Virus record (IMG/VR): IMGVR_UViG_3300028898_000107
Origin: a virus
Length of the DNA stretch: 52,349 nt
Direction: 5' to 3' (one strand)
Of this stretch, positions 1,954-52,349 are shown piece after piece. Within the stretch, counting starts at the first letter, position 1; every line of letters starts with the position of its first letter. The position numbers and the translations under genes were made by a program. A model generated the notes under the pieces. It was given only the letters and a program-made list of their open reading frames with translations, was not told where the DNA came from and searched no databases.

Positions 1954-1992
1954 GTCTCTCAATAAATAGGGTCAATAGGGAAAGGAGTGAAG

Positions 1993-2681: not shown

Positions 2682-2691
2682 GGAGTAGAGA

Positions 2692-4351: not shown

Positions 4352-4366
4352 AATCGCTTCCCCTCC

Positions 4367-4486
4367 CTATAGTGAAAGATACAAACGGATGATCTTCTTG
4401 ACCCAGGGCCAGGATAACTCTACCAGCTGAAGAACAGCCCAGAGCAAAAAGACTGTGGAAAAGAAGAAGAACAATATGGGATGCAT
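4367..4486 (-). CDS. 39-aa hydrophobic peptide
   Basis: AAGGAGG 5 nt upstream of ATG 4486. Product MHPILFFFFSTVFLLWAVLQLVELSWPWVKKIIRLYLSL. It is the first ORF after the promoter at 4511-4539. It is too short to appear in the ORF track. Confidence 0.45.
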   Translation of the reverse strand: MHPILFFFFSTVFLLWAVLQLVELSWPWVKKIIRLYLSL

Positions 4487-4508
4487 GAGAACCTCCTTGT
4501 TGATAGGA

Positions 4509-4961: not shown

Positions 4962-5016
4962 AGGTCCTCCATGAGAAAGAGCCCCGAAGGGCTCTTTTGG
5001 TGGGTGAGGCTTAGGG

Positions 5017-5460: not shown

Positions 5461-5493
5461 CTTGGTTGTCTCCCTTAGTTCTCTGATTTCGAA

Positions 5494-6206
5494 TCAGCCT
5501 AAAAGGCCGGCTATCTTGGTTCCTTCAACTGAAGCTCCTAGGGGAAGCTTGGAACCGTACTCCTTCCCCTCCCTCATGGCCGACCCCAGAACCGAGGAGC
5601 TTCTAGAGGATTTGGCCCTCCTCAGTTCTATTCCCTGGTCCTTTAGAAAAGCCATATTGAGTTCTATTTCAATCTTGTAGTAATCCGCCAGAACCAGGGA
5701 AGTCCCTGTGGACTCTGAGGTCTCAACCTCCTTCTGTTTTCTCATCTCCCAAACCCTAGTCTGGATCTGAGAAGCACCCCCTCCGAGAAGCTTCTCCTCC
5801 ACTCGGCCCCCATCCCCAGAGCTCTAGCTCTCTTTCCGGCCTCTCTCCTGACGGAAGAGACTAAGAACATAGAGAGTTCCATGGCGGTGACTGAGTTGGA
5901 TAGCTTTCCTACGAAATGGTGGTGGAGCATATTGCGAGTGGAGGACCTTTGGATATAGTACTTGCAGAAGAAGAGTTCTGCCACTGCTTTGCAAATATCC
6001 TTAGCCCAGGGTCTCCCATAGAAGATCTCTTCGGTATCAGTCCTCTTCTCCTCTTTAGGATTGATGTCGGACATCTCCAGGTTGTGCTTGGCGATTAGGT
6101 TGTAGGCCATTCTCAGGGCGTTGTCTCGTTCCCCTTCGGTAGCCGCCTCATTGTTGGCCAGGGCCAACAATTTGCGAATCTTGTCGATGATACGTTCTTC
6201 AGTCAT
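5494..6206 (-). pseudogene. DUF2786-type protein interrupted by a frameshift at a G5 run
   Basis: GGGAGA precedes ATG 6206. N-terminus IIDKIRKLLALANNEAATEGERDNAL. The frame stops at 5742, but the conserved C-terminal part (GASQIQTRVWEMRK...SLVLADYY...) continues in ORF 5494..5802. The switch is at the C5/G5 run 5777-5781. Confidence 0.6.
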
Positions 6207-11730: not shown

Positions 11731-11759
11731 ATTATAACCCAAATGGGTAGGAGTTAAAA
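11731..11759 (-). promoter_or_regulatory. candidate promoter TTTTAA-N17-TATAAT
   Basis: Reverse complement is TTTTAActcctacccatttgggtTATAAT, in the 50-nt gap between the polymerase and exonuclease genes. Confidence 0.4.
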
Positions 11760-14258
11760 CTCCCACTTCTCCCCAATACCCCATGGACCTACCTCAAAAT
11801 CCGCCACCAGGGGGACGGTCATCTTGATCTTGAATACCGTCAGCAGTTGAGGATCCTCCATGATACCTTTGACCTGGGGTATTATCTCACCTAAGTACTC
11901 CGTCCTGATCCACATGAGGATGGAGTCGTGGACCTCTCCCACAATCCTCAGTTGCTCCGGGTCGAAGGTGTCATGTATCTCCACCATGGCCATCGCCTTG
12001 AGGTCTCCTGACCCGAATCCTTGAACTGGACTGTTGATGGCCTGGCGCTCAGCCTCCTGTTGAATGGTCTTGTCAATACTATACACCCCTGGGAGTCTAC
12101 GCAGTCTTCCGCTTAGTGAGGCTACCTCTCCGAACAGTCTCACGGTTCTTCGCATCCTTTCGTGCCATGAGGACAAGGAGCTATAGACCTCAAAGAATCT
12201 CTCTCGGTATTTCTTGGACTGCTCATCGGAGAAGATCACTCCGTAGTTGTCTCGGGCATAATCCTTGAACTTCTTCCACCACATCCCATACAGGAAGCCG
12301 AAGTTGACGGGCTTGCCCATCTTCCGTTGTTCTTTGGTGAGCTTCCCGGGATCTATCCCTGTTATCTCAGAGGCGGTGGCGGAATGGATGTCTCCGCCAG
12401 TCTGGAAGATCATCATCATCCTTTGGTCTCCGGATAGCATGGCCGCTAGCCTCAGCTCTATTTGAGAATAGTCAGCTACCACCAGTGTCCACCCCGGAGG
12501 AGCGGTGATGTGGGACCTGATGGAGGGATCTCTCGGGACCTGGTGAAGTCGAGAGGCATAGCGCCCTGTGACCGTCCCATGCAGTTTTGTGGATAGGTAT
12601 AGGTATGGGCCGTGCATCAACTCCTTCCATCCGAGAACATAGGTGGATAGATTCTTCTCCACTCCTCGGATCTTCACCATCAACTCAGCCACAGGAGACT
12701 GGTCCTTTAGTCTCATCAGGACCGACTCCGAGGTGCTGGGCTCTCCCTTAGGAGTCTTTTCCAGAATGGGTAGTCCTAAGGCCTCAAACAAAAAGCCTCC
12801 TACTTGAGCAGGAGAACCCCAATTTACCTCATCAACTCCATTGTCCCTGGCGATCTCATTCAGCTCACAGAGCAATTCGTCTCTCTCATGGATGAGCCTC
12901 TTCTCGGTCTTACCCAGTAGAGAAAGATCCACATAGAGGCCATTGGCCTCGATACTCTCGAACATCCGGGCGGATCTCATGACCAGCTGATAGAACAGTC
13001 GGCGGAGGGAGTGGTTTTGAAGAATCCTCTTCCTGAAGATATAGTAGAGCTTTAGGGTCCAATAAACGTCTTCGCATCCGTAACGATAGAAGGGCTCCAG
13101 TTCACCTAGCCCCAATTTGGTTTTCAAGTCGACGTCGTAGGCCGGAGCATCGCATTCAGCTACGGCTACTTCCTTGAGCCCATGAGGGCTGTTCTCATCC
13201 AAGGTGTGATGGGCCAGCATCCCATCGAAGTCCAGGAAGAACTTTACTCCATAGACCTTAGTTAGCCACCGGTTGTCGAATTTCCCGTTCCAGGCTACCG
13301 CCTTGAGCTTTAGTTCCCTTTGAAGGTCCACTAAGGTTTCGATGAACATCCTCTGCTGAGAATGCTTTCCCTTCCATGGGGAGTCCCTAACCTCTAATGG
13401 GATGGAGAAGTTTCTCCCTGAAGCCAGTCCTATCTGAAGGGAGTTGATAGCGGACGGTCCTTCAAATCCTTCTCTACCAAACTTCACCTTAAAGCGAGGA
13501 GCATTCTCATCCAGTCCTGTGGTCTCACAGTCGAAGGAGAACTCAGGGCTCTGGGAAAACTCCTCGATGAAGGAGTTCCATTGTCCTAGAGTCCGGATGA
13601 CCTCGTAGTGTATCGGGTCTTGAACTAGGTTATCTCCTCTCACCAGCTTTCCAAATCTCATCAGATCTCCCCTAAGGGCCGGAAGCTTGCTGGGATCTCG
13701 TAGAGCCATGGCCGGATGGAAAGTGGGGAAGAGGGTGTAGCCGGGCTGTTCGATTGGCTGGCCATGTAGCTCGGTGATCTTCCCTTTATGGAGACTCTTG
13801 AGAGCACTCGCCCCTAGAGAGAGAATGAACTGAGGGGTAACGGAATGAATCTCCTTTGTCAGGTACTGCTTACACACCTTGAGCTCAGAGGCCGATGGGG
13901 AGCCCCCCTCCGGCGGCTTACACTTCACGGAATGGGTGATATAACAGTCGGATAGTTCTACCCCAGCCTCCTCTAGAAGCTCCCTTAGGAGCTTACCTGG
14001 CGGGCCTCCCATGAGCTTTCCTGTGGAGTCTGCTGCCTGAGTGGGGGCCTCTGTCACCACCATGACGCTAGCCCTTGCGGGACCTTGACCCCACATGCAG
14101 ACGGTCTCAGCGGACTCCCATAACCCACACTGGCTGCAGTTAGGGTCTCTCTCCTCAGTGTGACGAGTCAGACGTCTCTTGTTTGGTGAAGCATTCAACG
14201 ATGACTCCTGAGGACCGGAGGAGCTCAATACCTTCCGTTTTACGGTATGGGGTTTCAT
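11754..14258 (-). CDS. family-4 uracil-DNA-glycosylase domain fused to family A DNA polymerase (3'-5' exo + pol)
   Basis: N-terminus CSQCGL...MVVTEAP...KCKPP...TFHPA (UDG4-like). Then an exonuclease domain (FDCETTGL), followed by pol motifs DYSQIELR, RKMGKPVNFGFLYG and VHDS. Start is uncertain (ATG 14258, or TTG 14198 after AGGAG). Confidence 0.85.
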   Translation of the reverse strand: MKPHTVKRKVLSSSGPQESSLNASPNKRRLTRHTEERDPNCSQCGLWESAETVCMWGQGPARASVMVVTEAPTQAADSTGKLMGGPPGKLLRELLEEAGVELSDCYITHSVKCKPPEGGSPSASELKVCKQYLTKEIHSVTPQFILSLGASALKSLHKGKITELHGQPIEQPGYTLFPTFHPAMALRDPSKLPALRGDLMRFGKLVRGDNLVQDPIHYEVIRTLGQWNSFIEEFSQSPEFSFDCETTGLDENAPRFKVKFGREGFEGPSAINSLQIGLASGRNFSIPLEVRDSPWKGKHSQQRMFIETLVDLQRELKLKAVAWNGKFDNRWLTKVYGVKFFLDFDGMLAHHTLDENSPHGLKEVAVAECDAPAYDVDLKTKLGLGELEPFYRYGCEDVYWTLKLYYIFRKRILQNHSLRRLFYQLVMRSARMFESIEANGLYVDLSLLGKTEKRLIHERDELLCELNEIARDNGVDEVNWGSPAQVGGFLFEALGLPILEKTPKGEPSTSESVLMRLKDQSPVAELMVKIRGVEKNLSTYVLGWKELMHGPYLYLSTKLHGTVTGRYASRLHQVPRDPSIRSHITAPPGWTLVVADYSQIELRLAAMLSGDQRMMMIFQTGGDIHSATASEITGIDPGKLTKEQRKMGKPVNFGFLYGMWWKKFKDYARDNYGVIFSDEQSKKYRERFFEVYSSLSSWHERMRRTVRLFGEVASLSGRLRRLPGVYSIDKTIQQEAERQAINSPVQGFGSGDLKAMAMVEIHDTFDPEQLRIVGEVHDSILMWIRTEYLGEIIPQVKGIMEDPQLLTVFKIKMTVPLVADFEVGPWGIGEKWEF

Positions 14259-29195: not shown

Positions 29196-30590
29196 ATGTC
29201 GAAGAAGAGCATCGTTCGGACGACTCAAGCTGCCCTGACCCAGGAGAAGAAGATGAGGGCGAAGGATAGCTTCGTCAACTTCGCTCACAATCTGGGCATC
29301 GGAGCTGACAACCCTATGACCTCTTCATCATATGGTTTCAACCCGATCACCCGCAACAGAACGCTGCTCGAGTGGGTTCATCGCGGTTCCTGGCTAGGCG
29401 GAGTGGCCATTGACGTAGTGGCCGACGATATGACCCGAGCTGGGGTCTCTCACAAGGGTGAACTCAAGCCAGGAACCATCGAGGATCTCGAGGAAGAGGC
29501 AGTTCGCCTCGGAGTTTGGGAGACCCTCAACGACTCTGTCAAGTGGAGTCGGTTGTATGGTGGCTGCATCGCAGTGATGCTGATAGATGGCCAGGACCTG
29601 AGCACACCGCTTCGTCTCAACACCATTCGCAAAGGGCAGTTCTGTGGACTGATGACGCTTGACCGCTGGATGGTCGAGCCCAGCCTCAACGACCTGGTCA
29701 CCGAGCTCGGTCCTAACCTGGGCCTGCCGAAGTACTACACCGTCACCGCTCAAGCTCCTGCCTTATCCCGTCAGAAAATCCACTATAGCCGATGCATCCG
29801 GCTAGAAGGCATCAAGCTGCCATACTGGCAGAGACTGATGGAGAACCTGTGGGGCTTGTCTGAGCTCGAACGTCTGTATGACCGGATGATCGCTTTCGAC
29901 TCGGCTACCACTGGCGCTGCTCAGCTGGTTTACAAGTCCTATATCCGGACTTACAAGATCAAGGATATGAGGGAGGTCGTAGCCACGGGTGGACCTGCTG
30001 CCGAAGGACTGGTCAAGTATGTGGACATGATGCGTCGCTTCCAAGGGATCGAGGGAATGACCTTGATCGATGCTGAAGACAGTATGGAGTCCTCCACCCA
30101 CGGTGCCTTCTCTGGTCTATCGGATGCCCTGGTGCAATTCGGCCAGCAGCTCTCTGGGGCGTTGCAGATCCCGTTGGTTCGACTGTTCGGGCAGAGCCCC
30201 GCAGGCTTCAGCTCTGGCGACTCTGACCTGCGCAATTACTACGACAACATCAAGCAGAAGCAAGAGAAGCAGCTGCGGGTGGGAGTCACGAAGGTCTATC
30301 GAGCACTGGCCGCATCCAGGGGGGTTGACCTGCCGGACGGATACCGACTCGAGTTCAATTCCCTGTGGCAACTCAATGATGAGCAGAAGGCCGCTATCGC
30401 CTCGAGCACCTCGAGTGCCATCTCTGCTGTCGAAGGTTCTGGGGTGATCGACCGTGCAACGGCCCTGAAGGAGCTCAAGCAGTGCAGCACGGTCACGAAC
30501 ATCTTCTCGAACATTACCGACGAAATGATCCGCGAGGCGGAAGGCGAAGGTCCTCCAATACCAGATGATGTGCTCCCTACTGACGAATGA
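29196..30590 (+). CDS. portal protein (DUF1073-like)
   Basis: 464 aa. It is the first large gene after the terminase genes, with an acidic C-terminus. Confidence 0.75.
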   Translation: MSKKSIVRTTQAALTQEKKMRAKDSFVNFAHNLGIGADNPMTSSSYGFNPITRNRTLLEWVHRGSWLGGVAIDVVADDMTRAGVSHKGELKPGTIEDLEEEAVRLGVWETLNDSVKWSRLYGGCIAVMLIDGQDLSTPLRLNTIRKGQFCGLMTLDRWMVEPSLNDLVTELGPNLGLPKYYTVTAQAPALSRQKIHYSRCIRLEGIKLPYWQRLMENLWGLSELERLYDRMIAFDSATTGAAQLVYKSYIRTYKIKDMREVVATGGPAAEGLVKYVDMMRRFQGIEGMTLIDAEDSMESSTHGAFSGLSDALVQFGQQLSGALQIPLVRLFGQSPAGFSSGDSDLRNYYDNIKQKQEKQLRVGVTKVYRALAASRGVDLPDGYRLEFNSLWQLNDEQKAAIASSTSSAISAVEGSGVIDRATALKELKQCSTVTNIFSNITDEMIREAEGEGPPIPDDVLPTDE

Positions 30591-31341
30591 TGCTTCAACC
30601 GCAGAGCTTCGACGGTTAGCCCGTCAACGGTTCGCGAAGGCGCATCGGCTCGAAGCCTCCTACCTGCGGCAACTGCAGGGAGTGGTTCGGCAGATCGACG
30701 CCATCGTCAAAGGGATGGCCCCGCAGGGAGTGGTTCATGATCTGCCTGGGATACAGCGAGTCCTCAACCAATACTCGGAGACCATCCGTCCTTGGGCGAA
30801 GTCTGTGGCTGAGAGGATTCTGGCCGAGATCTCGCGCAGAGATGAGGCGGCCTGGCATGAGTTAGGGAAGGAGACCGGACGAGCCCTGCGCAAGGAGATC
30901 CAGTCTGCTCCCACAGGAGAGGCGCTGCGGATCCTCCTTGACGAGCAAGTGACGTTGATCACCAGCCTGCCGACAGAAGCCGGCCAGAGGGTGCATAGGC
31001 TGACCCTGGAGGCGATCGCCGACAGTAGTCGGGCGAAGGAGATCGCGAAGGACATTCTGCGAACCGGAAAGGTCACAGAGAGCCGTGCAAAGCTGATAGC
31101 TCGGACCGAGGTCGCCAGGACTGCAGCAGGTCTCACCCAAGTTCGAGCTGAGCATGTGGGGATTGAGGCCTATATTTGGAGAACCAGTGGAGACGTGGAT
31201 GTTCGAGACAGCCATAAGAAAATGAATGGAAAAGTAGTTCTTTATAGTCAACCTCCAGAAGTAGACCCGGGTAAGTTTTACCATGCTGGAACCTTTCCCA
31301 ATTGTAGATGTTATCAAGAACCCATCCTCCCGAATGAGTAG
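30565..31341 (+). CDS. Mu F-like / SPP1 gp7-like head morphogenesis protein
   Basis: ARTEVARTAAG...DVRDSHKKMNGKVV...FPNCRCYQEPI motifs. Confidence 0.8.
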   Translation: MMCSLLTNDASTAELRRLARQRFAKAHRLEASYLRQLQGVVRQIDAIVKGMAPQGVVHDLPGIQRVLNQYSETIRPWAKSVAERILAEISRRDEAAWHELGKETGRALRKEIQSAPTGEALRILLDEQVTLITSLPTEAGQRVHRLTLEAIADSSRAKEIAKDILRTGKVTESRAKLIARTEVARTAAGLTQVRAEHVGIEAYIWRTSGDVDVRDSHKKMNGKVVLYSQPPEVDPGKFYHAGTFPNCRCYQEPILPNE

Positions 31342-31972
31342 AGTCTCCTTCTTGTATAAGATAGATTTTCCAAATGGGAAAGGTTATATTGGAATATCCA
31401 TAGACCCTCTTCGACGATGGAAGACCCATCTGAGGAGGGCAAAGAGGGAATCATCCCTTCCAGTGCACAATGCCTTACGTAAATTTCCCGAGGCCGCTTT
31501 CAAAGTGCTCGCTAAAGGTGAACTGGAGTATATACAAGAATTAGAGATTAAGGCCATTGCTCTGTTTGAAACCCTAGTCCCGAAGGGATATAATTTGGGA
31601 CTCGGCGGAACCGTTGGGCCTATGTTGAACCCGCTAACCTCAGCAAAAGTCTCAGCTTCTAAGATGGGACACTTCGTCTCTGAGGAGACTAGGAGAAAGC
31701 AGTCATTAGCACAACTGGCCAGATTTGCTAAGCCTGGGGCCATCTCCGAGGAGACCCGAAGAAAGCTCTGTGGAAGAGTCCCTCCCCTAAAAGGAAAGAC
31801 TCATTCTGAAGAAGCTAAGGATAAAATAAGGGCCAAAAGGGCGCTTCAGGTTATGTCGGGAGAGTCTCAACGTCAACTGAATATACGACGTAGAGAATGG
31901 ATAGCTAGCACGGGATTTACTGGCTGCTTTCAGAAAATCACCAAGGCTATGATGGACTCAACCGATGAATAA
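31334..31972 (+). CDS. GIY-YIG homing endonuclease with NUMOD3-like repeats
   Basis: FLYKIDFPNGKGYIGIS...R...H...ALRKF...E (GIY-YIG core). Three SEETRRK/SEEAKDK repeats. Lower GC. Overlaps both flanking genes. Confidence 0.8.
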   Translation: MSRVSFLYKIDFPNGKGYIGISIDPLRRWKTHLRRAKRESSLPVHNALRKFPEAAFKVLAKGELEYIQELEIKAIALFETLVPKGYNLGLGGTVGPMLNPLTSAKVSASKMGHFVSEETRRKQSLAQLARFAKPGAISEETRRKLCGRVPPLKGKTHSEEAKDKIRAKRALQVMSGESQRQLNIRRREWIASTGFTGCFQKITKAMMDSTDE

Positions 31973-33560
31973 AGCTGCCGGAATACTCTTCATAGCCAAT
32001 GGCAAAGCTCTGCTACTCAAGCGAGGCGATGGCTACTGGGGTCTACCTGGTGGACACCTCGAGCCTGGCGAGACCGACCGAGAAGCTGCCATCCGGGAAA
32101 CGTTCGAGGAGTGCCAGTATCGAGTGAGAGACCCGATCGAGAGACACTCGGTTGCAATCTCACCAGAGGTGAGCTTCACCACGTTCCTGTGTGAAGTACC
32201 CGAAGAGTTCCGGCCAGTGCTGAACCACGAGCACACTGCTTACCTGTGGACGTCAGAGGTACCGGACTCCACACACCCGATGTTGACCAATATACTGCGA
32301 GGGATTATGATCAAACGTCATTCGAGAGATGCAACCAATCACCTGGGAGAGAAGACCTACCGCACCTATGCCGCTTGGCGGGCTGCCTGTAAGGTAGCCA
32401 ATCCCTCTGTACGGTTCGAGGGCGACAGCGAGATCTGCCATGCCCTGCCGAACGTCGGTGAGTGGGACGGTGAGACCGGAGTCGTGTACGCACAGAAGGC
32501 GAAGGATGCTCTCTCTGAGGCCGATAAGCAGGCTCGTATTCAACGGCTATCCAACCGAATGGGTGTATCCAAGAGCGTAGCTGAGAAAGAGCTAATCGCC
32601 GAGGAATGGGATGAGGCCGAGGCTGCTCTCAATCTACGGTCGATGGTCGGAGGAAAAGGGTTGGCGGGAAAGAGGTCGGAGGACGCCTCCCCTAAGGCAG
32701 AGGCCTTAAAGAGGAAGATTGAAGAGCTCTCAGGGTCTTTAGGGCTTGCTCGTGAAAAACGAAAGATGAAGACTGGGGGAGCCCAACACTATCAGTCACA
32801 AAGAGAAATGGATCTCTCCAAAAAGATCAGTGAGCTACGTCAAGAACTCCATCTCTTGGAATCCGCCCGAGACTCTTCTGACCTCGAGAAGACCTACACC
32901 AGTGAATTCCTCAAGCGGTTTGATGTGGCCAAGATGAAGCGTCTGGGCTACCAGGTAGTCTCCGAGGCGAAGAATCCCGAAGGCACCTACATGGTGACCT
33001 ATCGCAAGCGGTCGAAGGATGCTGTGGAGGGCGTGGTCTACAAGACCCTGGCCGAAGCAAAGGTCGCAGCTGAGCGGACTGGCGGCAAGGTCGAGCAGAA
33101 GTTCGACACGTCCAAGGAACCTCCCTACAATACCTACTGGATAGTGAAGCCCGCAGCGAAGGACGCCGGGACCTTCAAGGAGGAAGAACATCCCCGCGAG
33201 GGAGGCAAATTCACTTCGAAAGGCGGATCATCGAAGACCGAGAAGATGGCTACTGGTCCTACCGAGTCCGATGTCAAGAGGGTCACTGGAGAATATAACC
33301 AGGCGCTGGCCAGCTATCGCCAGGCCCACAAGGAAATGGAGGGAGCCCTGCAGGAAGCGGCGAAGGGGTTCTCCAAAGACCCAAGTGAGCGGTGGAATCA
33401 AGTCGTGAAGTTCAAGAAGGACTTCCTCAAACCCCATGAGCAGAAGCTCAACAAGGCGGAGAAGAAGGCGAACGAGGCTATCACCGCTCTGAGCAAAGCC
33501 GACGGGAAGAACCGCCCATTGGTCGGGTTCAAAGGGACTCCAGGAGGCCGCTTTGGATAG
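31965..33560 (+). CDS. large protein with N-terminal NUDIX hydrolase domain and long charged C-terminal region
   Basis: NUDIX box GGHLEPGETDREAAIRETFEECQY. C-terminal KDAGTFKEEEHPREGGKFTSKGG motif. 531 aa. Confidence 0.75.
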   Translation: MNKAAGILFIANGKALLLKRGDGYWGLPGGHLEPGETDREAAIRETFEECQYRVRDPIERHSVAISPEVSFTTFLCEVPEEFRPVLNHEHTAYLWTSEVPDSTHPMLTNILRGIMIKRHSRDATNHLGEKTYRTYAAWRAACKVANPSVRFEGDSEICHALPNVGEWDGETGVVYAQKAKDALSEADKQARIQRLSNRMGVSKSVAEKELIAEEWDEAEAALNLRSMVGGKGLAGKRSEDASPKAEALKRKIEELSGSLGLAREKRKMKTGGAQHYQSQREMDLSKKISELRQELHLLESARDSSDLEKTYTSEFLKRFDVAKMKRLGYQVVSEAKNPEGTYMVTYRKRSKDAVEGVVYKTLAEAKVAAERTGGKVEQKFDTSKEPPYNTYWIVKPAAKDAGTFKEEEHPREGGKFTSKGGSSKTEKMATGPTESDVKRVTGEYNQALASYRQAHKEMEGALQEAAKGFSKDPSERWNQVVKFKKDFLKPHEQKLNKAEKKANEAITALSKADGKNRPLVGFKGTPGGRFG

Positions 33561-33915
33561 AGGAGTACTTGGTCTTTTTCTGGTCGCCCTTCTTCTGGTC
33601 GTCGTAGTGGCCGCTTATCCGTCCGAGAGACCCATCTCAGGCCTCACTCTGGAGGTGGTCACCGCCGAGGAAGGAAAGGCCAAGGGGTTATCTGGTCGGG
33701 ACTTTCTTCCTGAGCACCAGGGGATGCTGTTCGTCTGGCAAGAGGTCGCCCAGAGGTGTATGTGGGGAAAGGATCTCAGGTTCGATATAGACCTGCTGTT
33801 CCTAGACGGTAAAGGTACTTTGGTTCGTCATGAGCCTCTGGATGCCGGAGACCCTTCGCCTCACTGTCATGAGGCACAATACGTGTTGGAAGTAAATCGA
33901 GGAGAGCCTGTATGA
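33553..33915 (+). CDS. DUF192-like protein with N-terminal membrane anchor
   Basis: AGGAGG lies 5 nt before TTG 33553. LGLFLVALLLVVVVAAY anchor. KGLSGRDFLPEHQGMLFVW...DIDLLFLD...AQYVLEVNRG pattern. Confidence 0.6.
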   Translation: MDRGVLGLFLVALLLVVVVAAYPSERPISGLTLEVVTAEEGKAKGLSGRDFLPEHQGMLFVWQEVAQRCMWGKDLRFDIDLLFLDGKGTLVRHEPLDAGDPSPHCHEAQYVLEVNRGEPV

Positions 33916-34325
33916 AGCTGCTTCAACTGTCCGTCCTATCCATGGTCATCTGCCTCCTTCTGGCGGCATCCGGGATCAAGTTGGGATACCAGTCGGCCGA
34001 GGCTTACTATCCGACTGTTCAAACTGAAGCCTTCACCCCTACGGGTATGGCCACCCTGACTGTGAGCCAAGTATCCTCGTCCGTTCCTCTGGCCTCTACG
34101 GGGGCGAGTTCTCCCGCTGCTACCATTGCGGTCATTCAGAACCTGGGCGCTAAGACCGCGTACGTGGCCCTGGGGGCCGCCTCGAACGTGACTGCTACGG
34201 TCTCTGGCGGGTTCCCCATCATGGCCTCCCAAAAGGCCTCTTTGACGGTCCGTGACTCGAAATATCTGGCAGCTATCGCTGCTACTGGCGAATCCACAGT
34301 ACTGTCTGTGGCTACGGGGTACTAA
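33912..34325 (+). CDS. exported beta-rich protein (signal peptide)
   Basis: ATGA-coupled. MKLLQLSVLSMVICLLLAASG signal-like N-terminus. S/T/A/V-rich. Confidence 0.65.
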   Translation: MKLLQLSVLSMVICLLLAASGIKLGYQSAEAYYPTVQTEAFTPTGMATLTVSQVSSSVPLASTGASSPAATIAVIQNLGAKTAYVALGAASNVTATVSGGFPIMASQKASLTVRDSKYLAAIAATGESTVLSVATGY

Positions 34326-34326
34326 G

Positions 34327-35229
34327 ATGAGACACTTCCTTCTTCTGTTGATCCTGTGGGCCTCGCAGGCTGGCGCATATCAGGTCTTCCAGGGGCCTCC
34401 GGCCGGTAAGACCTCAGACACTGCGGTTCTTGTGACCCCTACTGGGTCCACAGTGGTCACAGAAGAGGGGTTGGTAGGAACCATTCCCTACCATGATCTC
34501 ATCCGTCTTGGGAAGATCCCAGGGCATTCCCCATTCCGAGGATTCGGCCAACGCCCATCGTTGAGTACTGTGGCCACCGGAGACGATATCTGGACAGGAA
34601 CGGCTACGACCATTCCCATACCTGATCAAACTACGGGGGATGCCCTCACCTGCGTCTCCACTTCGGCAGCGGATGCGTCTCCCTCTGGGGCAAATGTCCG
34701 TAAGATTGACCTGCACTACCTGACCCTGGCCGGAGCAGAGGCCCATGCTAACATCTCCTTGAATGGAACCACTCCGGTCTCTACGGGATTGACGGGAGTT
34801 CGGCACATCCAGTACATTCACTCAGAGGAAACCTCTGGGTATGGGGTAGCTGCGGCTGGGGTCATTACCTGCTACCGAACGGGAGACGCCGCTCGGGTCT
34901 ATGCCCAGATCCCCATCGGGGCTAACGTCTCCCTGAACTCCCAGCGAATGGTACCGGCTGGGAAGACGTTCTACATGAACTATATCTCGGTGTCCGGAGC
35001 CAGTGGAAAACCCTTGTCCGTGAGGCTGAGAGCCACTAATGACTTCGAGGGCCTTCTCACCCCTGGGATATTCATCTTCAATGAGGTCTACTTCCTACAG
35101 GATTCTGTGACTTCCTTAAACCTCAGCATACCGCGAAAGTTCCCGGCCCTGAGTATCATCAAGGCAACCGTCTACTCCACCCAGGCGGGAGGAGATGTGT
35201 CCGTCTCCTATGGCGGTTGGATAGAGTAA
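34327..35229 (+). CDS. exported protein (signal peptide), about 300 aa
   Basis: ATG 34327 lies 1 nt after the previous stop. MRHFLLLLILWASQAGA/YQ is a canonical signal peptide. The track start 34252 overlaps the upstream gene. Confidence 0.65.
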   Translation: MRHFLLLLILWASQAGAYQVFQGPPAGKTSDTAVLVTPTGSTVVTEEGLVGTIPYHDLIRLGKIPGHSPFRGFGQRPSLSTVATGDDIWTGTATTIPIPDQTTGDALTCVSTSAADASPSGANVRKIDLHYLTLAGAEAHANISLNGTTPVSTGLTGVRHIQYIHSEETSGYGVAAAGVITCYRTGDAARVYAQIPIGANVSLNSQRMVPAGKTFYMNYISVSGASGKPLSVRLRATNDFEGLLTPGIFIFNEVYFLQDSVTSLNLSIPRKFPALSIIKATVYSTQAGGDVSVSYGGWIE

Positions 35230-35295
35230 GCTTGCATCACGGCGAATCTGCGCCGCCGTATCAAGAGCGCAGAAATCGACGAGAAGGAACCTAAT

Positions 35296-35748
35296 ATGAA
35301 AAAGCTTCTGCAACTCTTTGCCCTGGTGGCGGCGATGGGTCTGGGCCTGTTCGCCAGTGCTTATGCTGAGACCTACCCAGTCACCAATCCGACCTATATC
35401 CCGAATGCTCGTGGCACAGCTTTCACCGTGGCCTCGAACGTGGCCGCTACTCCCCTGACTCTCAACGGTATCGGTACCGTGGCCTTGCAGCTGTCGGGTA
35501 CTTGCACCGGCCTCCAAGGGCGGATGCAAGGTACTGTGGATGATACGAACTATGTCACTCTCAACATGTACCCGTACAACGCCACCTTAGCTGCTTCGGC
35601 GGTTACTTCCGTTAGCGGTACGACTGGCACCTGGGTGATGAACACCGCGGGATACTCGAAGGTTCGTATGAATAATACGGGGGTGTCTACTTCCACCTGT
35701 GTTGGTCGTCTGGTCGGTTCGTCGGCAGCCTTCGCCCTACCACGATAG
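35296..35748 (+). CDS. exported protein (signal peptide), two Cys
   Basis: MKKLLQLFALVAAMGLGLFASAYA/ETYP is a canonical signal peptide with an AxA site. Its N-terminus resembles that of the 33912 product. Confidence 0.7.
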   Translation: MKKLLQLFALVAAMGLGLFASAYAETYPVTNPTYIPNARGTAFTVASNVAATPLTLNGIGTVALQLSGTCTGLQGRMQGTVDDTNYVTLNMYPYNATLAASAVTSVSGTTGTWVMNTAGYSKVRMNNTGVSTSTCVGRLVGSSAAFALPR

Positions 35749-35806
35749 TACTCCGGCCGTAGCCTCTACTGGGGGCTACCACAGCAGTATTAACATAGGA
35801 GACAGT

Positions 35807-37159
35807 ATGAACTTCCATACCATCGAAAAGCTTGGGCCTAAGCAGAGCCTGACCCCAGAAGGATTCCTGCTATGCGAAGAGGTCCCCATCGCCCGCACGG
35901 GGATGCTGATCTATGGACCGAATGAGACCCCGATCAAGGCCGGAGCTGAAGGGCTAGTCAAGATCCACCGTGAGGAGGAAGAGGTCTTCCGGCCAGAGTC
36001 CATCGCCAGTGCCCAAGGAAAGCCAGTCACGGATGATCACCCAGACGAGGATGTCAACCCGGAGAACTGGAAAGAACTAGCCGTCGGAACTGCTCTCAAT
36101 GTTCGAAGAGGGGTAGGGGCGATGGACGACCTGTTATTGGCCGACTTCCTGATCACCTCTAAGGAAGGAATCGAGGCCATTCGCAGCGGAAGGAAGACAG
36201 AGGTCTCCTGTGGTTATGAAGCGGACTACGAGGAAATCTCTGAAGGGGTAGGAAGGCAGAAGAATATCATCATCAATCATATCGCGTTGGTCGAGAATGG
36301 TCGCTGTGGCCCGCGATGTGCAGTAGGCGACCGGAACTCAACTAAGGAGGTAAACATGGCAGCAAAGAAAGGAAACAAATTCCTTGATACCCTGATGAAG
36401 GCGTTCAAGGCAAAGGACGCCGAGGAGGTCGAGCAGTTGGCTCAAGACCTCGAGACTGTGAAAGGCGGGGAAGAAGGCGACACCCACATCCACATCCACA
36501 ACGGAAATGGTGAGGCCAGGCCGGAGGTTCTGGATGAAGAAGGACAACGCATCCGGTTCACCGACGACTTGATCCAGGAACACATTGACCGCAATGATGC
36601 TGAACATGCTGAGATGCGAGCCGAGATCGAGACTCTCAAGGAGATGGTCGCTCAACTCTCTGGCAATTCCGAAGGTGCTACCGACGGAGATCCGGATGAG
36701 CAGACCGAACAGGCCCTGCGTGATGAAGCACCGGAGGGCATGGAAGAGCAGGCGGCTAAGGCCAAGGACTCTGCCTATCTGGCTGACTCCTTCCAGGATG
36801 CGGCTTCTCAGGCCGAGATCTTGGTTCCTGGCGTGAAGATCCCGGTCTTCGATGGTGCGGCTAAGCCGACTCAATCCCTGAAGAAGCTGTGCCACTTCCG
36901 TCGCGGCGTTCTGGACTTGGCCTATAACCAGCCGGCAACTCGTGGCATCATCGACGAGCTGTTGGACGGCAAGTCTTTGGACACCAAGTCCATGACCTGC
37001 GATGCCATCCGCACGATGTTCCGGTCGGCGGCAGCGATGAAGAGGGCCTTGAACAACCAGCCGGCAGGACGCACCAGCGACCAGTCCGGAGCGGCAAAAG
37101 GTCCCGTGACCCTGGCGGAGCTCAACCGTCGCAATTCCGAGCACTGGAATCTCGGCTAA
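35807..37159 (+). CDS. DUF2213-like prohead protease/scaffold fusion with nested internal start at 36356
   Basis: TAGGAG precedes ATG 35807. GKPVTDDHP...VSCGYEADY pattern in the N-terminal half. In-frame ATG 36356 is preceded by AAGGAGG. The C-terminal half is acidic and helical. Confidence 0.7.
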   Translation: MNFHTIEKLGPKQSLTPEGFLLCEEVPIARTGMLIYGPNETPIKAGAEGLVKIHREEEEVFRPESIASAQGKPVTDDHPDEDVNPENWKELAVGTALNVRRGVGAMDDLLLADFLITSKEGIEAIRSGRKTEVSCGYEADYEEISEGVGRQKNIIINHIALVENGRCGPRCAVGDRNSTKEVNMAAKKGNKFLDTLMKAFKAKDAEEVEQLAQDLETVKGGEEGDTHIHIHNGNGEARPEVLDEEGQRIRFTDDLIQEHIDRNDAEHAEMRAEIETLKEMVAQLSGNSEGATDGDPDEQTEQALRDEAPEGMEEQAAKAKDSAYLADSFQDAASQAEILVPGVKIPVFDGAAKPTQSLKKLCHFRRGVLDLAYNQPATRGIIDELLDGKSLDTKSMTCDAIRTMFRSAAAMKRALNNQPAGRTSDQSGAAKGPVTLAELNRRNSEHWNLG

Positions 37160-37190
37160 CTACCCACAACCTCAAAAAGGAGTAACACAG

Positions 37191-37730
37191 ATGAAACGTA
37201 TGAAGACTCGTGATGTGGCCTTTCAATACCGGATGGGCGCAGGCTTCGCCGGTGATGTCAACCGTACCCACCCGGCAACCATCGAACCCTGCCTGATCGA
37301 CGATGCCGCACCGCCGGCTATCTTCGGCCAGCTGGTCTTGGTCGACCCGACCACTCAGGGCGTTCGCCCGTTCACCACCGGTGACGCCTCGCAGGCTGCC
37401 TATGGCGTGACGGTTCGCCCTTACCCGTACCAGCAGTCTACTGCAGCTCTGGCGAATGCTCAAGCCAATCTGGGCAATGCAGTGGCTCCGGTCTCTGGCA
37501 TCATGGACGTTCTGCGCGCAGGTTATATTCTGGCTCAAGTGAACGTCGGCCAAACCGCTCCGGTGAAAAATGGCAACGTCTACGTCCGCGTAGCGGCCAC
37601 TTCCGGAAACCACATCATTGGCCAGCTGGAGACTGCATCCGACGGTGGCAACAACGTTCTGGTGACCAACTGCAAGTTCAACGGCGGTACCGATGCTAAT
37701 GGCGTAGCTGAGCTCGCCTTCAACATCTAA
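37191..37730 (+). CDS. head decoration / cement protein (DUF2190-like)
   Basis: 179 aa, G/A/V-rich. It lies between the scaffold and major capsid genes and has strongly biased codon usage. Confidence 0.55.
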   Translation: MKRMKTRDVAFQYRMGAGFAGDVNRTHPATIEPCLIDDAAPPAIFGQLVLVDPTTQGVRPFTTGDASQAAYGVTVRPYPYQQSTAALANAQANLGNAVAPVSGIMDVLRAGYILAQVNVGQTAPVKNGNVYVRVAATSGNHIIGQLETASDGGNNVLVTNCKFNGGTDANGVAELAFNI

Positions 37731-37757
37731 TCCCACATTCAATAGAGAGGAACACAG

Positions 37758-38882
37758 ATGAAACAAAGCAAACTGATCCTGCCGACGAGCTTTCGTCGTA
37801 AGACCCGCGATATCATGACCTTCGACTCGGGCTACCGCACGATCGATGCTCAGGGTAACATGTTGGGCAAGCCCTTGGGCAATTCCTTCAAGACTACGGA
37901 CGGCCGCACGGTCGACTCCACCGGCGCCTTCCTGGTCGGTGAACTCGAACGCCTCGACCTGACTCTGCATGAGCCGCTGGCTGCGGTGACCTGGGGTCGC
38001 GATATCGACCTGCGCGAAGACGTGACCATCGCCGATGAAGTTTCCAGCTTCACCTTGTCGAGCTTCGGTTCGGCTGGCGGGCTGGGGGCGGGCAATGGTA
38101 TTGGCAACGGCAAGGCCTGGATTGGCAAAGACACCAACCAGATCACGGGCATCTCGGCCGACATCGCCAAGGTTCCGCACCCGCTGCACCCCTGGGCAAT
38201 GGAGTTGAAGTACACCATCCTGGAGCTGGAAAGCGCCGCTAAGCTGGGTCGCCCAGTGGATGCCCAGAAGTATGAAGGCCTGGTCCTGAAGCACCAGATG
38301 GACATCGACGAGCAAGTCTACATCGGCGATACCTCCATGGGCGTTACTGGCCTGATCAACAACTCCCTGGTGACCAACGTTGGCAACCTCCCGAACGGTG
38401 CTGCAGGTTCTCCCCTGTGGAGCCAGAAGACTCCTGACGAGATCCTGGCCGACGTCAACACCGCACTGACTTCTGTCTGGGCGGCGTCTGGCTGGGCGGT
38501 CATCCCGGGTCGTCTGCTGCTGCCGCCTGCACAGTTCGGCTACATCAGCACCCAGAAGGTGTCCAATGCCGGCAATGTCTCCATCCTCAAGTATATCCAA
38601 GAGAACAACCTGTTGACTACTTCGGGCAAGGGCAAGCTGGAGATCCTGCCGCTGAAGTGGCTGGTAGGCGCAGGAGTTGGTGGTACCATCGGCAGCACTG
38701 GAACTGTGGACCGTATGGTGGTCTACACCAAGGAGAAGAAGCGTGTTCGCTATCCGATGACCTTGCTGCAGCGCACTCCCATCCAGTATGACAGCATCTA
38801 TCACAAGACGACGTACTTCTGTCGTCTGGGTGCTACTGAGGTGGTGTACCCTGAGACCATCGGCTACTTCGATGGCCTGTAA
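37758..38882 (+). CDS. major capsid protein (DUF2184-like, HK97-fold expected)
   Basis: 374 aa. Position after the scaffold and decoration genes. Strongest codon bias in the genome (Arg only CGT/CGC). Followed by a hairpin. Confidence 0.75.
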   Translation: MKQSKLILPTSFRRKTRDIMTFDSGYRTIDAQGNMLGKPLGNSFKTTDGRTVDSTGAFLVGELERLDLTLHEPLAAVTWGRDIDLREDVTIADEVSSFTLSSFGSAGGLGAGNGIGNGKAWIGKDTNQITGISADIAKVPHPLHPWAMELKYTILELESAAKLGRPVDAQKYEGLVLKHQMDIDEQVYIGDTSMGVTGLINNSLVTNVGNLPNGAAGSPLWSQKTPDEILADVNTALTSVWAASGWAVIPGRLLLPPAQFGYISTQKVSNAGNVSILKYIQENNLLTTSGKGKLEILPLKWLVGAGVGGTIGSTGTVDRMVVYTKEKKRVRYPMTLLQRTPIQYDSIYHKTTYFCRLGATEVVYPETIGYFDGL

Positions 38883-38893
38883 GCAGTAAACCC

Positions 38894-38916
38894 GGAGCCT
38901 GTTAATCGCAGGCTCC
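38894..38916 (+). terminator. hairpin after the capsid gene (partial terminator/stabiliser candidate)
   Basis: GGAGCCTG-ttaatcg-CAGGCTCC, 12 nt after the stop. There is no T-tract. Confidence 0.35.
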
Positions 38917-38942
38917 CAATTAACCCGTGAGGAGCAAATAAA

Positions 38943-39326
38943 ATGGCTAGGAGAGACAGCAACAAGCAACCCACCTATGAGTCTGACCTGGAGAAGGCCT
39001 CGGTCGAAGTGTCCAACGGTATGTCGGAAGAAGACGCGGTAGCCGCGATTCTGGCCGACTGGGAGGTTGACCCGGAGGACGTTCAAGCCCACATCCGCCA
39101 GCGAGTGGAAGAGCTGAAGGCCGAAGCGGAAGCTAAGGCAGCTAAGAAGGATACCCCGAAGAAGTCCGGGGATACCGTCACCGTCACCGTGCCAAAGGCC
39201 TTCAAACTCCGTCTGGATCATAACACCGAGCTGAAGTTCGAAGCCGGTATCCAAGAGATGGACCCCAAGGTGGCCGAGCATTGGTTCGCGAAAGCTAACG
39301 GGGTCGAGGTCTACCAACCTAAGTAA
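38943..39326 (+). CDS. hypothetical head-associated protein
   Basis: GAGGAG precedes ATG 38943. 127 aa. Confidence 0.6.
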   Translation: MARRDSNKQPTYESDLEKASVEVSNGMSEEDAVAAILADWEVDPEDVQAHIRQRVEELKAEAEAKAAKKDTPKKSGDTVTVTVPKAFKLRLDHNTELKFEAGIQEMDPKVAEHWFAKANGVEVYQPK

Positions 39327-39336
39327 GGAGGTTAGC

Positions 39337-39543
39337 ATGCCGTTGATACAAAGTGGTTCTGAGAAAGCCCTGAGGGAAAATATCGCCACCGAGATCTCAC
39401 ACGGCAAGCCTCCCAAGCAGGCTGTGGCTATCGCCCACTCCATCCAACGGGCCAATGACGGCCCGTTGGATAACCTGCCGGAGTCGGTCTCACTGGCCTC
39501 TATCAATGAGATGAACCGGAAGTACTGGGAAACTCCAATATGA
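39337..39543 (+). CDS. small hypothetical protein
   Basis: AAGGAGG precedes ATG 39337. GSEKALRENIATEISHGKPPKQAVAIAHSI. Confidence 0.6.
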   Translation: MPLIQSGSEKALRENIATEISHGKPPKQAVAIAHSIQRANDGPLDNLPESVSLASINEMNRKYWETPI

Positions 39544-39758
39544 CCAAGCGAATACATATCCACCTCAAGAGCGGTCTTCAATCTACTAAGGACGCTAATC
39601 CGGACGGAACGGTAAGCCCTGATGAAGATCGTCGAGAGGCTGAGCTTACCCAAAAGGCTAAAAAGCTATTCTCTGACCTAAAGACCGAGGCTTATGCCAT
39701 CGGGGGTCCTTTTCGAGGCCCGGGCATTTGGGGAAGAATAAAAAGGACTCTTCAATGA
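39540..39758 (+). CDS. small 'IHIHL' family protein, paralog 1
   Basis: MTKRIHIHLKSGLQSTKDA... ATGA-coupled on both sides. Confidence 0.6.
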   Translation: MTKRIHIHLKSGLQSTKDANPDGTVSPDEDRREAELTQKAKKLFSDLKTEAYAIGGPFRGPGIWGRIKRTLQ

Positions 39759-40237: not shown

Positions 40238-40432
40238 ATGGCCAAGCATATACACGTTCATGTAGGTAAGACCCAAGATGCACTGCCCTCTGCCCAAGTG
40301 TCCGAAGCCATTCGAAAGGCCGAGGCAATAATTCACCGTCTCAAGAATGTTACCCCTGGGACGGATTTGGCAGACGGGGACTTTCGAGAAGGGTACAAAG
40401 CCTTGACTGCGGCTTATAACTGGATTGTCTAG
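40238..40432 (+). CDS. small 'IHIHL' family protein, paralog 2
   Basis: MAKHIHVHVGKTQDA... Confidence 0.6.
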   Translation: MAKHIHVHVGKTQDALPSAQVSEAIRKAEAIIHRLKNVTPGTDLADGDFREGYKALTAAYNWIV

Positions 40433-51714: not shown

Positions 51715-52349
51715 ATGGCCACTAATAAGATCTACCCGTTTGCACAGGACCCTGGCGCAAACGTCCTCACTGATGCACAATATGCTGCCCTCACGGCCCT
51801 ACTGGCTGACGGGTTCCTGTCGGGGATAGCTTCCTCTGCTCAGATGAATAAGGTGTGGAGACAGAGCTCGGTCATCTCCGCGGCCGTAGCTCAGTTCATG
51901 GCTGATAACCAAGCTACGAACATTGATGACTCCCTCACTATAGCCAACCTGGCCACATACCTGAAGAATGCCATCAACGGGGCGGGAACCACACAGGCCC
52001 AGTTCGACAATACGACGAAGATGGCGACGACGGCGTTTGTTAAAGGAGCTCAAGGCAATACGAGCGGATTGAATTCTGCAAATGCGAATGCGAATTTGAC
52101 TCTAGGTCAGTTGGGCAACGTGTTCACGTATTACGGCTCGACAAGTGGCCAGCAACTTTCCTTGCCGGATGCGGCGATTGTACCGGCCGGATATGGTTAT
52201 TGGGTGGTCAATCAAGCCTCTGTCCCTGTCGCATTGAAGGGTTCCGGCGCACAGAACATCAACGCGAATACACCATCTGGAGCGTCTGCCGCCAATACGA
52301 TGAACCTGTCGCCGGGTGATTCTGTATTCATCAGCAGCAACGGCGCATC
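51715..52349 (+). CDS. tail fibre protein, N-terminal part (open to the window end; continues at 142..517 in the circular genome)
   Basis: AAGGAG precedes ATG 51715. My own translation gives MATNKIYPFAQDPGANVLTDAQY...QFDNTTKMATTAFV... There is no stop before 52349. It is not in the ORF track because it is open-ended. Confidence 0.8.
   Translation, partial: MATNKIYPFAQDPGANVLTDAQYAALTALLADGFLSGIASSAQMNKVWRQSSVISAAVAQFMADNQATNIDDSLTIANLATYLKNAINGAGTTQAQFDNTTKMATTAFVKGAQGNTSGLNSANANANLTLGQLGNVFTYYGSTSGQQLSLPDAAIVPAGYGYWVVNQASVPVALKGSGAQNINANTPSGASAANTMNLSPGDSVFISSNGA
52209..52349. repeat. terminal direct repeat, copy 2 (identical to 1..141)
   Basis: Read directly. Confidence 0.95.

Follow-up and report, generated by a model that had tools for sequence, protein, structure and literature searches.

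Four consecutive genes, here named A to D, form a conserved, non-random cluster of genes for exported or membrane-anchored β-proteins inside the head block of an uncultured contractile-tailed phage, IMG/VR virus record IMGVR_UViG_3300028898_000107. The whole stretch of DNA that was analysed is 52,349 nucleotides (nt) long and is referred to as the window. The four genes lie between a Mu-F-like head morphogenesis gene and a DUF2213 protease-scaffold gene, and this Mu-F-to-protease junction is an accessory-gene hotspot enriched in exported proteins. A first-pass annotation, made by a model from the sequence alone, had described four consecutive genes at this place, and the open reading frames (ORFs), all on the + strand, bear it out. 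Judged from their sequences, all four proteins carry N-terminal export or anchor signals, and we tentatively read them as a cassette acting at the cell envelope. The features of the cassette and of its two borders are as follows.

30565..31341, + strand: Mu-F-like head morphogenesis gene (Pfam Phage_Mu_F, E 7e-17; phrog_324, E 2e-63), left border of the hotspot and a conserved flank in related loci
33542..33547, + strand: AGGAGG ribosome-binding site, 5 nt ahead of the gene A TTG start
33553..33915, + strand: gene A, 120 amino acids (aa), TTG start
33912..34325, + strand: gene B, 137 aa, ATGA overlap with A
34327..35229, + strand: gene C, 300 aa, ATG start giving MRHF...
34327..34377, + strand: predicted Sec signal peptide of C, MRHFLLLLILWASQAGA, cut before YQ
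34378..34467, + strand: conserved module at the start of mature C (YQVFQGPPAGKTSDTAVLVTP...), found in other phages on unrelated C-terminal domains
34474..35226, + strand: double β-sandwich domain of C, signal-peptide-less and tail-associated in most other phages
35296..35748, + strand: gene D, 150 aa
35296..35367, + strand: predicted Sec signal peptide of D, MKKLLQLFALVAAMGLGLFASAYA, cut before ETYP
35368..35403, + strand: conserved motif ETYPVTNPTYIP, with which mature D is predicted to start; Y, P, P, Y and P are invariant in two alignments
35503..35505, + strand: Cys70 codon of D, first half of the predicted disulfide
35698..35700, + strand: Cys135 codon of D, second half of the predicted disulfide
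35807..37159, + strand: DUF2213 (Pa193 gp24-type) protease-scaffold gene (Pfam DUF2213, E 5e-50; phrog_530, head maturation protease), right border of the hotspot

Export signals and architecture of the four proteins

Signal-peptide calls were made by heuristics together with comparative conservation in homologues. In a hydrophobicity scan of about 75 ORFs (Kyte-Doolittle, 12-residue maximum within the first 40 residues, threshold 2.0), the maxima for A, B, C and D were 3.72, 2.94, 2.06 and 2.39, respectively. Eight of the roughly 75 ORFs reached the threshold: A to D, three proteins of the lysis cassette (genes at 1987-3344) and one tail chaperone, in which the hydrophobic stretch starts only at residue 25. 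By our own arithmetic (7 flagged among 75), the chance of finding four flagged ORFs in a row is about 0.002. The start codons were backed by homologues and by ribosome-binding sites.

By heuristic inspection, C and D fit the Sec type I pattern, with a basic n-region, an h-region of about 7-15 residues and small neutral residues at positions -3 and -1. Both proteins are probably cut by signal peptidase I and released to the periplasm. The h-regions of A and B span about 17-21 residues, and AxA-like sites (VAA↓Y and AEA↓Y; the arrow marks the cut) are present in the window and in the related locus L007 and absent from L009, L011, L014 and L015. A and B are more likely to be uncleaved signal anchors than cleaved signal peptides, and they would stay in the inner membrane with their domains facing the periplasm. 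The first-pass annotation had credited B, C and D with textbook Sec signal peptides; this holds for C and D, whose cut features are conserved, and is less likely for B, which looks anchor-like and has no consistent AxA site. It had also called two of the signal peptides, those sharing MK(K)LLQL, clearly related. The hhalign probability for B versus D was 2% and the resemblance is lost in relatives, and both a paralogy of B and D and a relationship of their signal peptides were rejected.

Gene D is the recurrent member of the cassette, and its product joins a signal peptide and a conserved N-terminal motif to a YomS/XepA-like β-sandwich. The signal peptide can be parsed as MKK + LLQLFALVAAMGLGLF + ASAYA↓E. 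In a profile search (E<=1e-3) the D family comprised at least 446 clusters (50% identity). The 10 of 10 close homologues and 19 IMG/VR homologues (28-63% identity) have a basic n-region, a hydrophobic core whose sequence drifts and a cut site of the AxA type, and the N-terminus was hydrophobic in 114 of the 150 best family matches. The motif (Q)(T/S/V)YPxxNPTYIP occurred in 77 clusters, nearly all with a signal peptide directly ahead of it; the motif-bearing exceptions, P0134 and P0195, are apparently truncated at the N-terminus. Among 84 family members, position -3 was occupied by A (49), V (9) or S (7), 65 in all, position -1 by A (57), G (6) or S (5), 68 in all, and position +1 by Q in 64.

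The Cys pair that had been noticed in the last protein corresponds to Cys70 and Cys135 and is invariant in close homologues. Across the wider family both cysteines were present in 32 cases, neither in 46 and only one in at most 6. Such co-variation is the pattern expected of a disulfide and fits an oxidising compartment, and D probably forms a disulfide in the periplasm. Many D homologues carry extra Cys-rich C-terminal domains, and one relative (P0224) is a giant D-repeat protein. No Pfam or PHROG model matched D, and 20 diverse family members gave nothing in Pfam and two marginal PHROG matches, both to families without assigned function.

The mature parts had been described as β-rich, and AlphaFold2 (AF2) accordingly modelled sandwiches for both C (predicted local distance difference test score, pLDDT, 89) and D (pLDDT 73, one β-sandwich). 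In the structure comparison that the first-pass annotation had proposed, Foldseek ranked YomS (6i5o) as the best match of the D model, with E 3.5e-5, probability 1.0, a template modelling (TM) score normalised by YomS (TMt) of 0.71 and a root-mean-square deviation of 4.6 Å over 114 columns. [quoted passage not shown] At the sequence level, the D-family profile found neither XepA nor YomS nor anything else significant among PDB sequences. A profile of remote signal-peptide-less D relatives (about 108 residues), run against 177,635 PDB sequences, placed XepA residues 186-274 first with a non-significant E of 0.17. The comparison of D with pilin or adhesin subunits was not upheld: the single pilin/adhesin-type match was a weak one to AfaE-3 (rank 42, E 0.15), the best matches were YomS and XepA, and the 52-kb genome contains no usher-sized or chaperone gene. 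An outer-membrane β-barrel had also been considered for D, given the C-terminal aromatic residue in many members; it was dropped in view of the AF2 sandwich and of the soluble, signal-peptide-less and repeat relatives.

The PBSX protein XepA is late, pentameric and cytotoxic; it is exported beyond the membrane and is not found in mature particles, and YomS corresponds to its C-terminal half (PMC6834076). D is predicted to have the same 4+4 antiparallel β-sandwich as XepA (PBSX, 6I56) and YomS (SPβ, 6I5O) of Bacillus subtilis and, like XepA, a late phage protein found outside the cytoplasmic membrane, to be exported. However, XepA and YomS have no signal peptide or transmembrane segment, whereas D has a Sec signal peptide, the YPxTNPTYIP motif and, in part of the family, the Cys pair. 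The host is Gram-positive for XepA and YomS and diderm for D. Furthermore, xepA stands beside holin and amidase genes after the tail genes, whereas D stands beside the head protease-scaffold gene and is lysis-adjacent only in L033. D may be a remote relative of XepA and YomS that works in a similar way; the predicted fold is shared, and D was not filed as a member of their family.

The gene C product has a signal peptide and a conserved N-terminal module ahead of its double jelly-roll domain. Its signal peptide (MRH + FLLLLILW + ASQAGA↓Y) and the aromatic residue at +1 are kept in L007, P0002, L009, L011, L015, L016 and L032, with variation in the hydrophobic core, and the signal peptide together with the module YQVFQGPPxGKxSDT is conserved in L007, P0002, L009 and L011. 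BLASTP aligned C with proteins of L011 (457 aa) and L009 (229 aa) over residues 1-45 only, and the C-terminal domains differ. The signal peptide and 30-residue module of C are thus joined to at least two other types of C-terminal domain (L009/L011). A similar start (signal peptide, then Y-x-[VIL]-[YF]) precedes a third domain type in L016, L032, L059, L081, L090 and L116.

The AF2 model of C (predicted TM score, pTM, 0.81) has two β-sandwich/jelly-roll domains. Its matches in the PDB were generic jelly rolls only (PHM, birnavirus VP2, TNF/C1q and PirA; TM score about 0.2), while in BFVD they were uncharacterised Caudovirales proteins with TM scores of about 0.7. The C profile found nothing significant among PDB sequences, and C matched phrog_8198 with E 3.7e-6. 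We found 78 homologues (E 1e-194 to 9e-6; 45-60% identity over about 250 residues), of which 4 have a hydrophobic N-terminus and 74 do not. The long members carry fibre-type N-terminal repeats. In other phages the family is encoded directly after the tape-measure gene of a siphovirus (L005/L006), between P22 gp10-like and gp7-like genes (L127), where a fibre module ends, ahead of the lysis genes (L126), and near tailspike genes. The phrog_8198-type proteins of siphoviruses and podoviruses share the double jelly-roll of C, but in C the domain follows a signal peptide and the 30-residue module. Many of them are extended at the N-terminus in a fibre-like manner and are encoded in tail or fibre modules, whereas gene C sits in the head block. 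In a P22-like podovirus (L003:264-1079 / L004:8001-8816), a C-family protein with a signal peptide of its own (MKKIILAI..PVYA↓ES) is encoded between the portal gene, which it directly follows, and the scaffold gene. Apparently, an exported copy of the tail-type C domain has come to lie inside a head module independently in this case.

For gene A, the first-pass annotation had proposed a DUF192-like protein with a transmembrane anchor and a TTG start behind AGGAGG, and all three points were confirmed. A hydrophobic anchor (residues about 5-21) is followed by a DUF192 domain that matched Pfam PF02643 with 63.2 bits (cut-off 27, E 2.5e-17, model positions 2-81 of 96). The family motifs GL.GR, GMLF and MW.K...D.D.LF are kept, and the matches among PDB sequences were 3PJY (a 'hypothetical signal peptide protein', E 1e-4) and 3M7A. 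In homologues of A (L007, L009, L011, L014 and L015) about 20 hydrophobic residues are retained at the N-terminus, with an inconsistent AxA. DUF192 proteins are listed in bacterial periplasmic and surface proteomes (PMC3608174, PMC7565204). Gene A shares its motifs with the bacterial DUF192/COG1430 proteins (3PJY, 3M7A), whose members are extracytoplasmic in those proteomes, and it scores above the Pfam threshold of the family; in contrast to them, the phage domain is always paired with a B protein (5 of 5 lineages).

The gene B product starts with a hydrophobic anchor or signal and continues with about 95 residues that make up a β-rich domain (FTPTG...NLG..AYV.FG...ISV.TGY). It matched no Pfam or PHROG family, and its profile gave nothing significant against PDB sequences. 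Homologues of B were found only beside DUF192 genes (L007/L008, L009, L011, L014 and L015); they retain a hydrophobic segment (about 20 residues) but show no consistent cleavage site. The profile of the mature part of B also matched residues 4-70 of P0196 (E 7e-11), a protein on a contig of 953 nt that bears a D-like domain at residues 106-196. This fusion of a B-like and a D-like domain links B and D.

A reading in which the four proteins are not exported, and their hydrophobic N-termini either serve cytoplasmic proteins for membrane association or capsid targeting or stem from a wrong choice of start codon, would agree with the absence of a clear cleavage site in A and B and with the hydrophobicity maximum of C, which is barely above the threshold. 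We nevertheless regard it as very improbable. The n-region, h-region and AxA site are kept across 84 divergent D members over a drifting core, with the mature motif starting exactly at the predicted cut; the start codons are supported as described above; the cysteines of D co-vary; and the DUF192 relatives are extracytoplasmic. Capsid-targeting N-termini, which the first-pass annotation had itself named as the finding that would speak against export, are disfavoured by the same observations. Being hydrophobic and ending in AxA, the N-termini also speak against internal head proteins targeted to the capsid in the manner of T4 (CTS type).

The Mu-F-to-protease junction and the distribution of the cassette

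The distribution was determined in an unbiased set of 80 IMG/VR loci picked by similarity of the major capsid protein (MCP; 59-87% identity), of which about 42 hold both flanks of the junction. D was present in 13 of these roughly 42 loci, mostly those of the closest relatives, and missing from about 70%. Where present, it lies within about 60 nt of the protease gene except in L123, in which a 1309-residue protein with a signal-peptide-like N-terminus (1979-5908) is encoded between D and the protease gene. In all loci retrieved by D itself (L007-L009, ERZ1426829, 21 IMG/VR loci and L035) the gene is directly 5' of the DUF2213 gene, and overall D adjoins the protease gene in about 35 of 36 loci. 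The synteny check suggested by the first-pass annotation thus gave a divided answer, with a constant place for D beside the protease gene and no cassette in many relatives. D was rejected as a core head gene, as only about 30% of the MCP-selected loci have it.

Among named phages, Bordetella phage IFTN9 has the Mu-F gene followed by the protease gene with no insert. In Edwardsiella phage ZHS the gap holds three small unrelated genes (genes 8-10) without signal peptides, one of them annotated as a head fibre protein. The gap of PB1 holds two tiny genes (gp20-21) and about 500 nt of non-coding DNA; no ORF for an unannotated D gene was found in this 550-nt gap. The ZHS gap proteins gave no significant match to B or D and were rejected as signal-peptide-less homologues. 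ZHS genes 8-10 and PB1 gp20-21 share the insertion site and the type of head module with A to D, but the ZHS genes have no detectable similarity to A-D. No D-family pattern was found in 185,579 GTDB species-representative genomes. Likewise, neither blastn of positions 31965-37200 nor tblastn of A, B, D and a D consensus gave a match among 50,697 phage records.

The Mu-F-to-protease gap spans 0.1 to 5 kb. Signal-peptide-like N-termini were found in 39 of the 98 gap ORFs of 42 loci, compared with 7-8 of about 75 ORFs genome-wide in the phage studied here. A, B and C come and go among relatives. Other gaps contain DUF192, B and C-like proteins and lipoprotein-like ORFs, and two contain exported proteins with tail-fibre repeats of the form SLA(A/T)VATSGAYxDLxGKP (L088:907-1947 and L098:4587-5780). 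In L033 (2195-4934) a lysis-type set, consisting of small transmembrane proteins, a lipoprotein (…LTAC↓TS) and a lysozyme-like protein, is encoded directly upstream of D.

The genes are tightly spaced, with one base between B and C, 66 nt between C and D and 58 nt from D to the ATG of the protease gene (35807). No terminator-like site was found on the + strand between the portal gene and the MCP gene. Given the common strand, the overlapping or short junctions and the lack of such a site, A to D would most simply be part of the late head transcript. The GC content of A-D is 0.54-0.58. Their correlation of relative synonymous codon usage (RSCU) with the structural genes is 0.40-0.73, compared with 0.46-0.88 for control genes; B, C and D are inside the range of the structural controls and A (0.40, a short gene) is slightly below it. 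This agrees with the earlier statement that GC and codon style resemble those of the surrounding structural genes. The further statement that the cassette is not an obvious recent moron stands for D, which is old and syntenic 5' of the protease gene (35 of 36 loci). It is weakened by the absence of D from about 70% of relatives and from IFTN9, ZHS and PB1, by the coming and going of A-C and by the hotspot itself.

The position of D bears on whether D, and perhaps C and B, could be virion accessory proteins matured outside the cytoplasm, joining capsids or tails as decoration or fibres at or after lysis. D adjoins the block of protease-scaffold, cement and MCP genes in nearly all loci, the ZHS gap holds small signal-peptide-less β-proteins including the annotated head fibre protein, and a signal-peptide-less YomS-like protein is encoded in the head/packaging block of L039, an unrelated phage. 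Capsid cement and decoration proteins are among the weaker Foldseek matches of D, the C family is tail-associated elsewhere, and L088 and L098 encode the exported tail-fibre-repeat proteins. However, we know of no tailed phage that adds periplasm-matured proteins to its virion. A cement protein is already encoded by this phage, relatives with an MCP of 60-85% identity can do without D, and A and B are apparently membrane-anchored, all of which makes virion proteins of this kind improbable. In a wider version, Sec and the oxidising periplasm would mature fibre- or decoration-like β-proteins (D, C and the tail-fibre-repeat proteins of relatives), which would join the virion or an envelope structure at or after lysis as an extracytoplasmic branch of morphogenesis coupled to the protease-scaffold gene. 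We hold this version to be just as improbable.

A possible role at the cell envelope

The first-pass annotation had considered exported proteins unexpected in cytoplasmic capsid assembly and had suggested that they may form an envelope-located system, and we agree with this view. An envelope role is the most reasonable reading, be it superinfection exclusion, surface remodelling, a release aid or an appendage. We tentatively favour the possibility, as a candidate that falls short of an even chance, that A to D are an envelope-acting accessory cassette that binds surface or receptor components and masks adsorption. The shuffling of domains, the fibre and tail affinity that the domain families show, the patchy occurrence of the cassette and the export signals of its members point in this direction.

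In outline, A to D would be a late-transcribed, envelope-targeted accessory cassette in the Mu-F/protease hotspot of a phage of a diderm host, with no part in cytoplasmic head assembly. Periplasmic D would be a disulfide-stabilised YomS/XepA-like β-sandwich, possibly an oligomer. Late in infection the proteins would bind envelope or surface components, for example glycans or the periplasmic face of a receptor, and binding would mask or alter the adsorption targets of phages of this group. Superinfecting phages would be excluded, and progeny would not be wasted on the dying cell and its debris. The tracking of variable host surfaces may be reflected in the swapping of domains in C, in C-terminal extensions that vary in D and in a patchy occurrence.

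Phages are known to encode envelope-acting proteins for exclusion or receptor masking, such as Llp of T5, Cor of T1 and phi80, Sim of P1 and Sp and Imm of T4, which are Sec-exported and often accessory and patchy in distribution. The genes for Llp and Cor are found among or beside structural genes. In the exclusion reading, the closest analogies to A-D would be T5 Llp, Cor and P1 Sim, although no sequence or profile similarity to them was found with PADLOC or NCBIfam. Llp, Cor, Sim, Sp and Imm are small lipoproteins, helical or membrane proteins and are mostly early or prophage-expressed, whereas A-D include β-sandwich and jelly-roll proteins; none of them is tied to a prohead protease gene, unlike D.

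Several points weigh against adsorption masking. PADLOC gave no match for A-D at E<=0.1, and NCBIfam gave nothing above its cut-offs for the four proteins. When C, B and D were compared with the tail fibre of the phage itself, the best BLASTP E was 1.1, which lends no support to a simple decoy of the phage's receptor-binding protein. The exclusion genes known so far are for the most part early or lysogenic and seldom tied to one structural gene; D is nearly always beside the protease-scaffold gene, which hints at a link to head genes or to timing that masking leaves unexplained. Periplasmic proteins reach the outer leaflet only via a further secretion step, and none is encoded near A-D. Finally, structural kinship is limited to XepA and YomS, which suggest lysis or an unassigned role and not exclusion.

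The last point raises the possibility that D, with A-C as partners, is a Gram-negative, Sec-dependent counterpart of XepA that helps phage egress by acting on the late breakdown of the envelope or on its timing, through an oligomeric β-sandwich on membrane or peptidoglycan. The window has a complete lysis cassette elsewhere:

1987-3492, + strand: lysis cassette, with a holin-like gene, DUF5675, a transmembrane protein, an i-spanin-like gene and an overlapping lipoprotein ORF; three of its proteins have hydrophobic N-termini
1987-2256: holin-like gene
2253-2681: DUF5675 gene (E 2e-30)
2692-3021: gene for the transmembrane protein of the cassette
3018-3344: i-spanin-like gene
about 3250-3492: out-of-frame lipoprotein ORF overlapping the i-spanin-like gene (lipobox LAAC↓S)

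The overlapping spanin pair, of the Rz/Rz1 type, indicates that the host has an outer membrane. Since this cassette is complete, A to D are not the lysis genes; they were also rejected as a lysis cassette on their own features, as each has a single N-terminal hydrophobic segment and a β-rich domain, and the true holin/endolysin/spanin set is the one listed. An egress helper besides this set would be consistent with YomS and the XepA C-terminal domain as best Foldseek matches of D, with the first rank of XepA for the remote relatives and with the lysis set directly upstream of D in the same gap of L033. XepA is itself late, exported, absent from mature particles and cytotoxic (PMC6834076). However, lysis genes lie elsewhere in this genome and in most relatives, and many close relatives, for which host lysis is just as necessary, do not have the cassette. 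The role of XepA is itself not settled (PMC6834076, on Krogh et al.), the sequence link to XepA is statistically non-significant, and fibre-like domain swapping is not expected of a lysis factor. On balance we consider an egress helper possible but unlikely.

The same export evidence (N-terminal hydrophobicity, the cut sites of D and the Cys pair) would also suit proteins that serve another periplasmic takeover or counter-defence function, neutralising an envelope defence or enzyme or remodelling the envelope while leaving adsorption unaffected. The patchy, hotspot-borne distribution is typical of accessory arms-race genes, and DUF192, as a conserved bacterial extracytoplasmic domain, could be turned against a host process. 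Yet PADLOC showed no similarity to known anti-defence or defence components, the apparent late expression would be poor timing for such a function, and the fibre-like and receptor-binding-like domain families favour surface binding. We therefore judge takeover or counter-defence to be rather unlikely, and binding to the cell surface is retained as the preferred reading.

Exported accessory proteins encoded by phages are already known. A targeted full-text literature search found no description of the cassette, of the anatomy of D or of its coupling to the protease gene, and the cassette, the D anatomy and the prohead protease coupling appear to be undescribed. The D family is large (the 446 or more clusters given above), is covered by no model in Pfam or PHROG and lacks a cultured representative. 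Its possible tie to XepA and YomS would connect Bacillus proteins with phages of Gram-negative hosts and suggests that late exported β-sandwich proteins are a general, overlooked accessory class. In head modules of the E217/PB1 type, the Mu-F-to-protease hotspot collects exported and often fibre-like proteins, which is useful for annotation, for studies of host range and exclusion and for the engineering of therapeutic phages of this type. If exclusion or prevention of readsorption were true, the cassette would represent a new structural class of such factors; if the proteins reached the virion, the view of tailed-phage assembly as purely cytoplasmic would change.

Genome context and neighbouring genes

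The first 141 nt of the window are identical to the last 141 nt (1-141 and 52209-52349), which indicates that the genome is complete, its 52,208 bp forming either a closed circle or a terminally redundant molecule. A tail-fibre gene crosses the genome junction (51715 to 517; 336 aa). By its Pfam and PHROG gene content the phage is an uncultured E217/PB1/KPP10-type contractile-tailed myovirus, with a DUF3383 sheath, a KPP10-type tube, Phage_portal_3, Mu-F, the DUF2213 protease-scaffold, an E217 gp24-type cement and a PF09950 major capsid gene as structural markers. The Pa193 gp24 protein, after which the protease-scaffold type is named here, is a putative scaffolding protein (PMC11456595). The phage carries replication genes of its own, and no integrase was seen among the approximately 40 of some 75 ORFs scanned against Pfam. 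The family A DNA polymerase (11754-14258, - strand) has an N-terminal domain of the uracil-DNA-glycosylase superfamily (Pfam UDG, E 3.5e-24) before its 3'-5' exonuclease domain. An 843-codon ORF antisense to the cement and major capsid genes (37122-39653, - strand) is almost certainly spurious and lies in a GC-rich region.

Two further genes are found between the Mu-F gene and gene A:

31283-31972: GIY-YIG/NUMOD3 homing-endonuclease-like gene (GC 0.46, RSCU correlation 0.26)
31965..33560, + strand: NUDIX-fusion gene (Pfam NUDIX, E 1e-13), whose stop codon overlaps the gene A start

GIY-YIG genes recur in the Mu-F-to-protease gap of L011 and L017. The C-terminal half of the NUDIX fusion is homologous to free-standing 'MAKHIHIHLP' proteins of relatives. 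An N-terminal motif, M(A/T)K(H/R)IH(I/V)H(L/V)...K(T)xD, recurs on small head-module proteins (39540-39758 and 40238-40432 in the window; loci L007, L009, L011, L014-L017 and L019), and it is also found internally in the protease-scaffold protein as DTHIHIHNG (about 36485). This HIHIH-type motif may be a capsid-targeting or protease-recognition tag.

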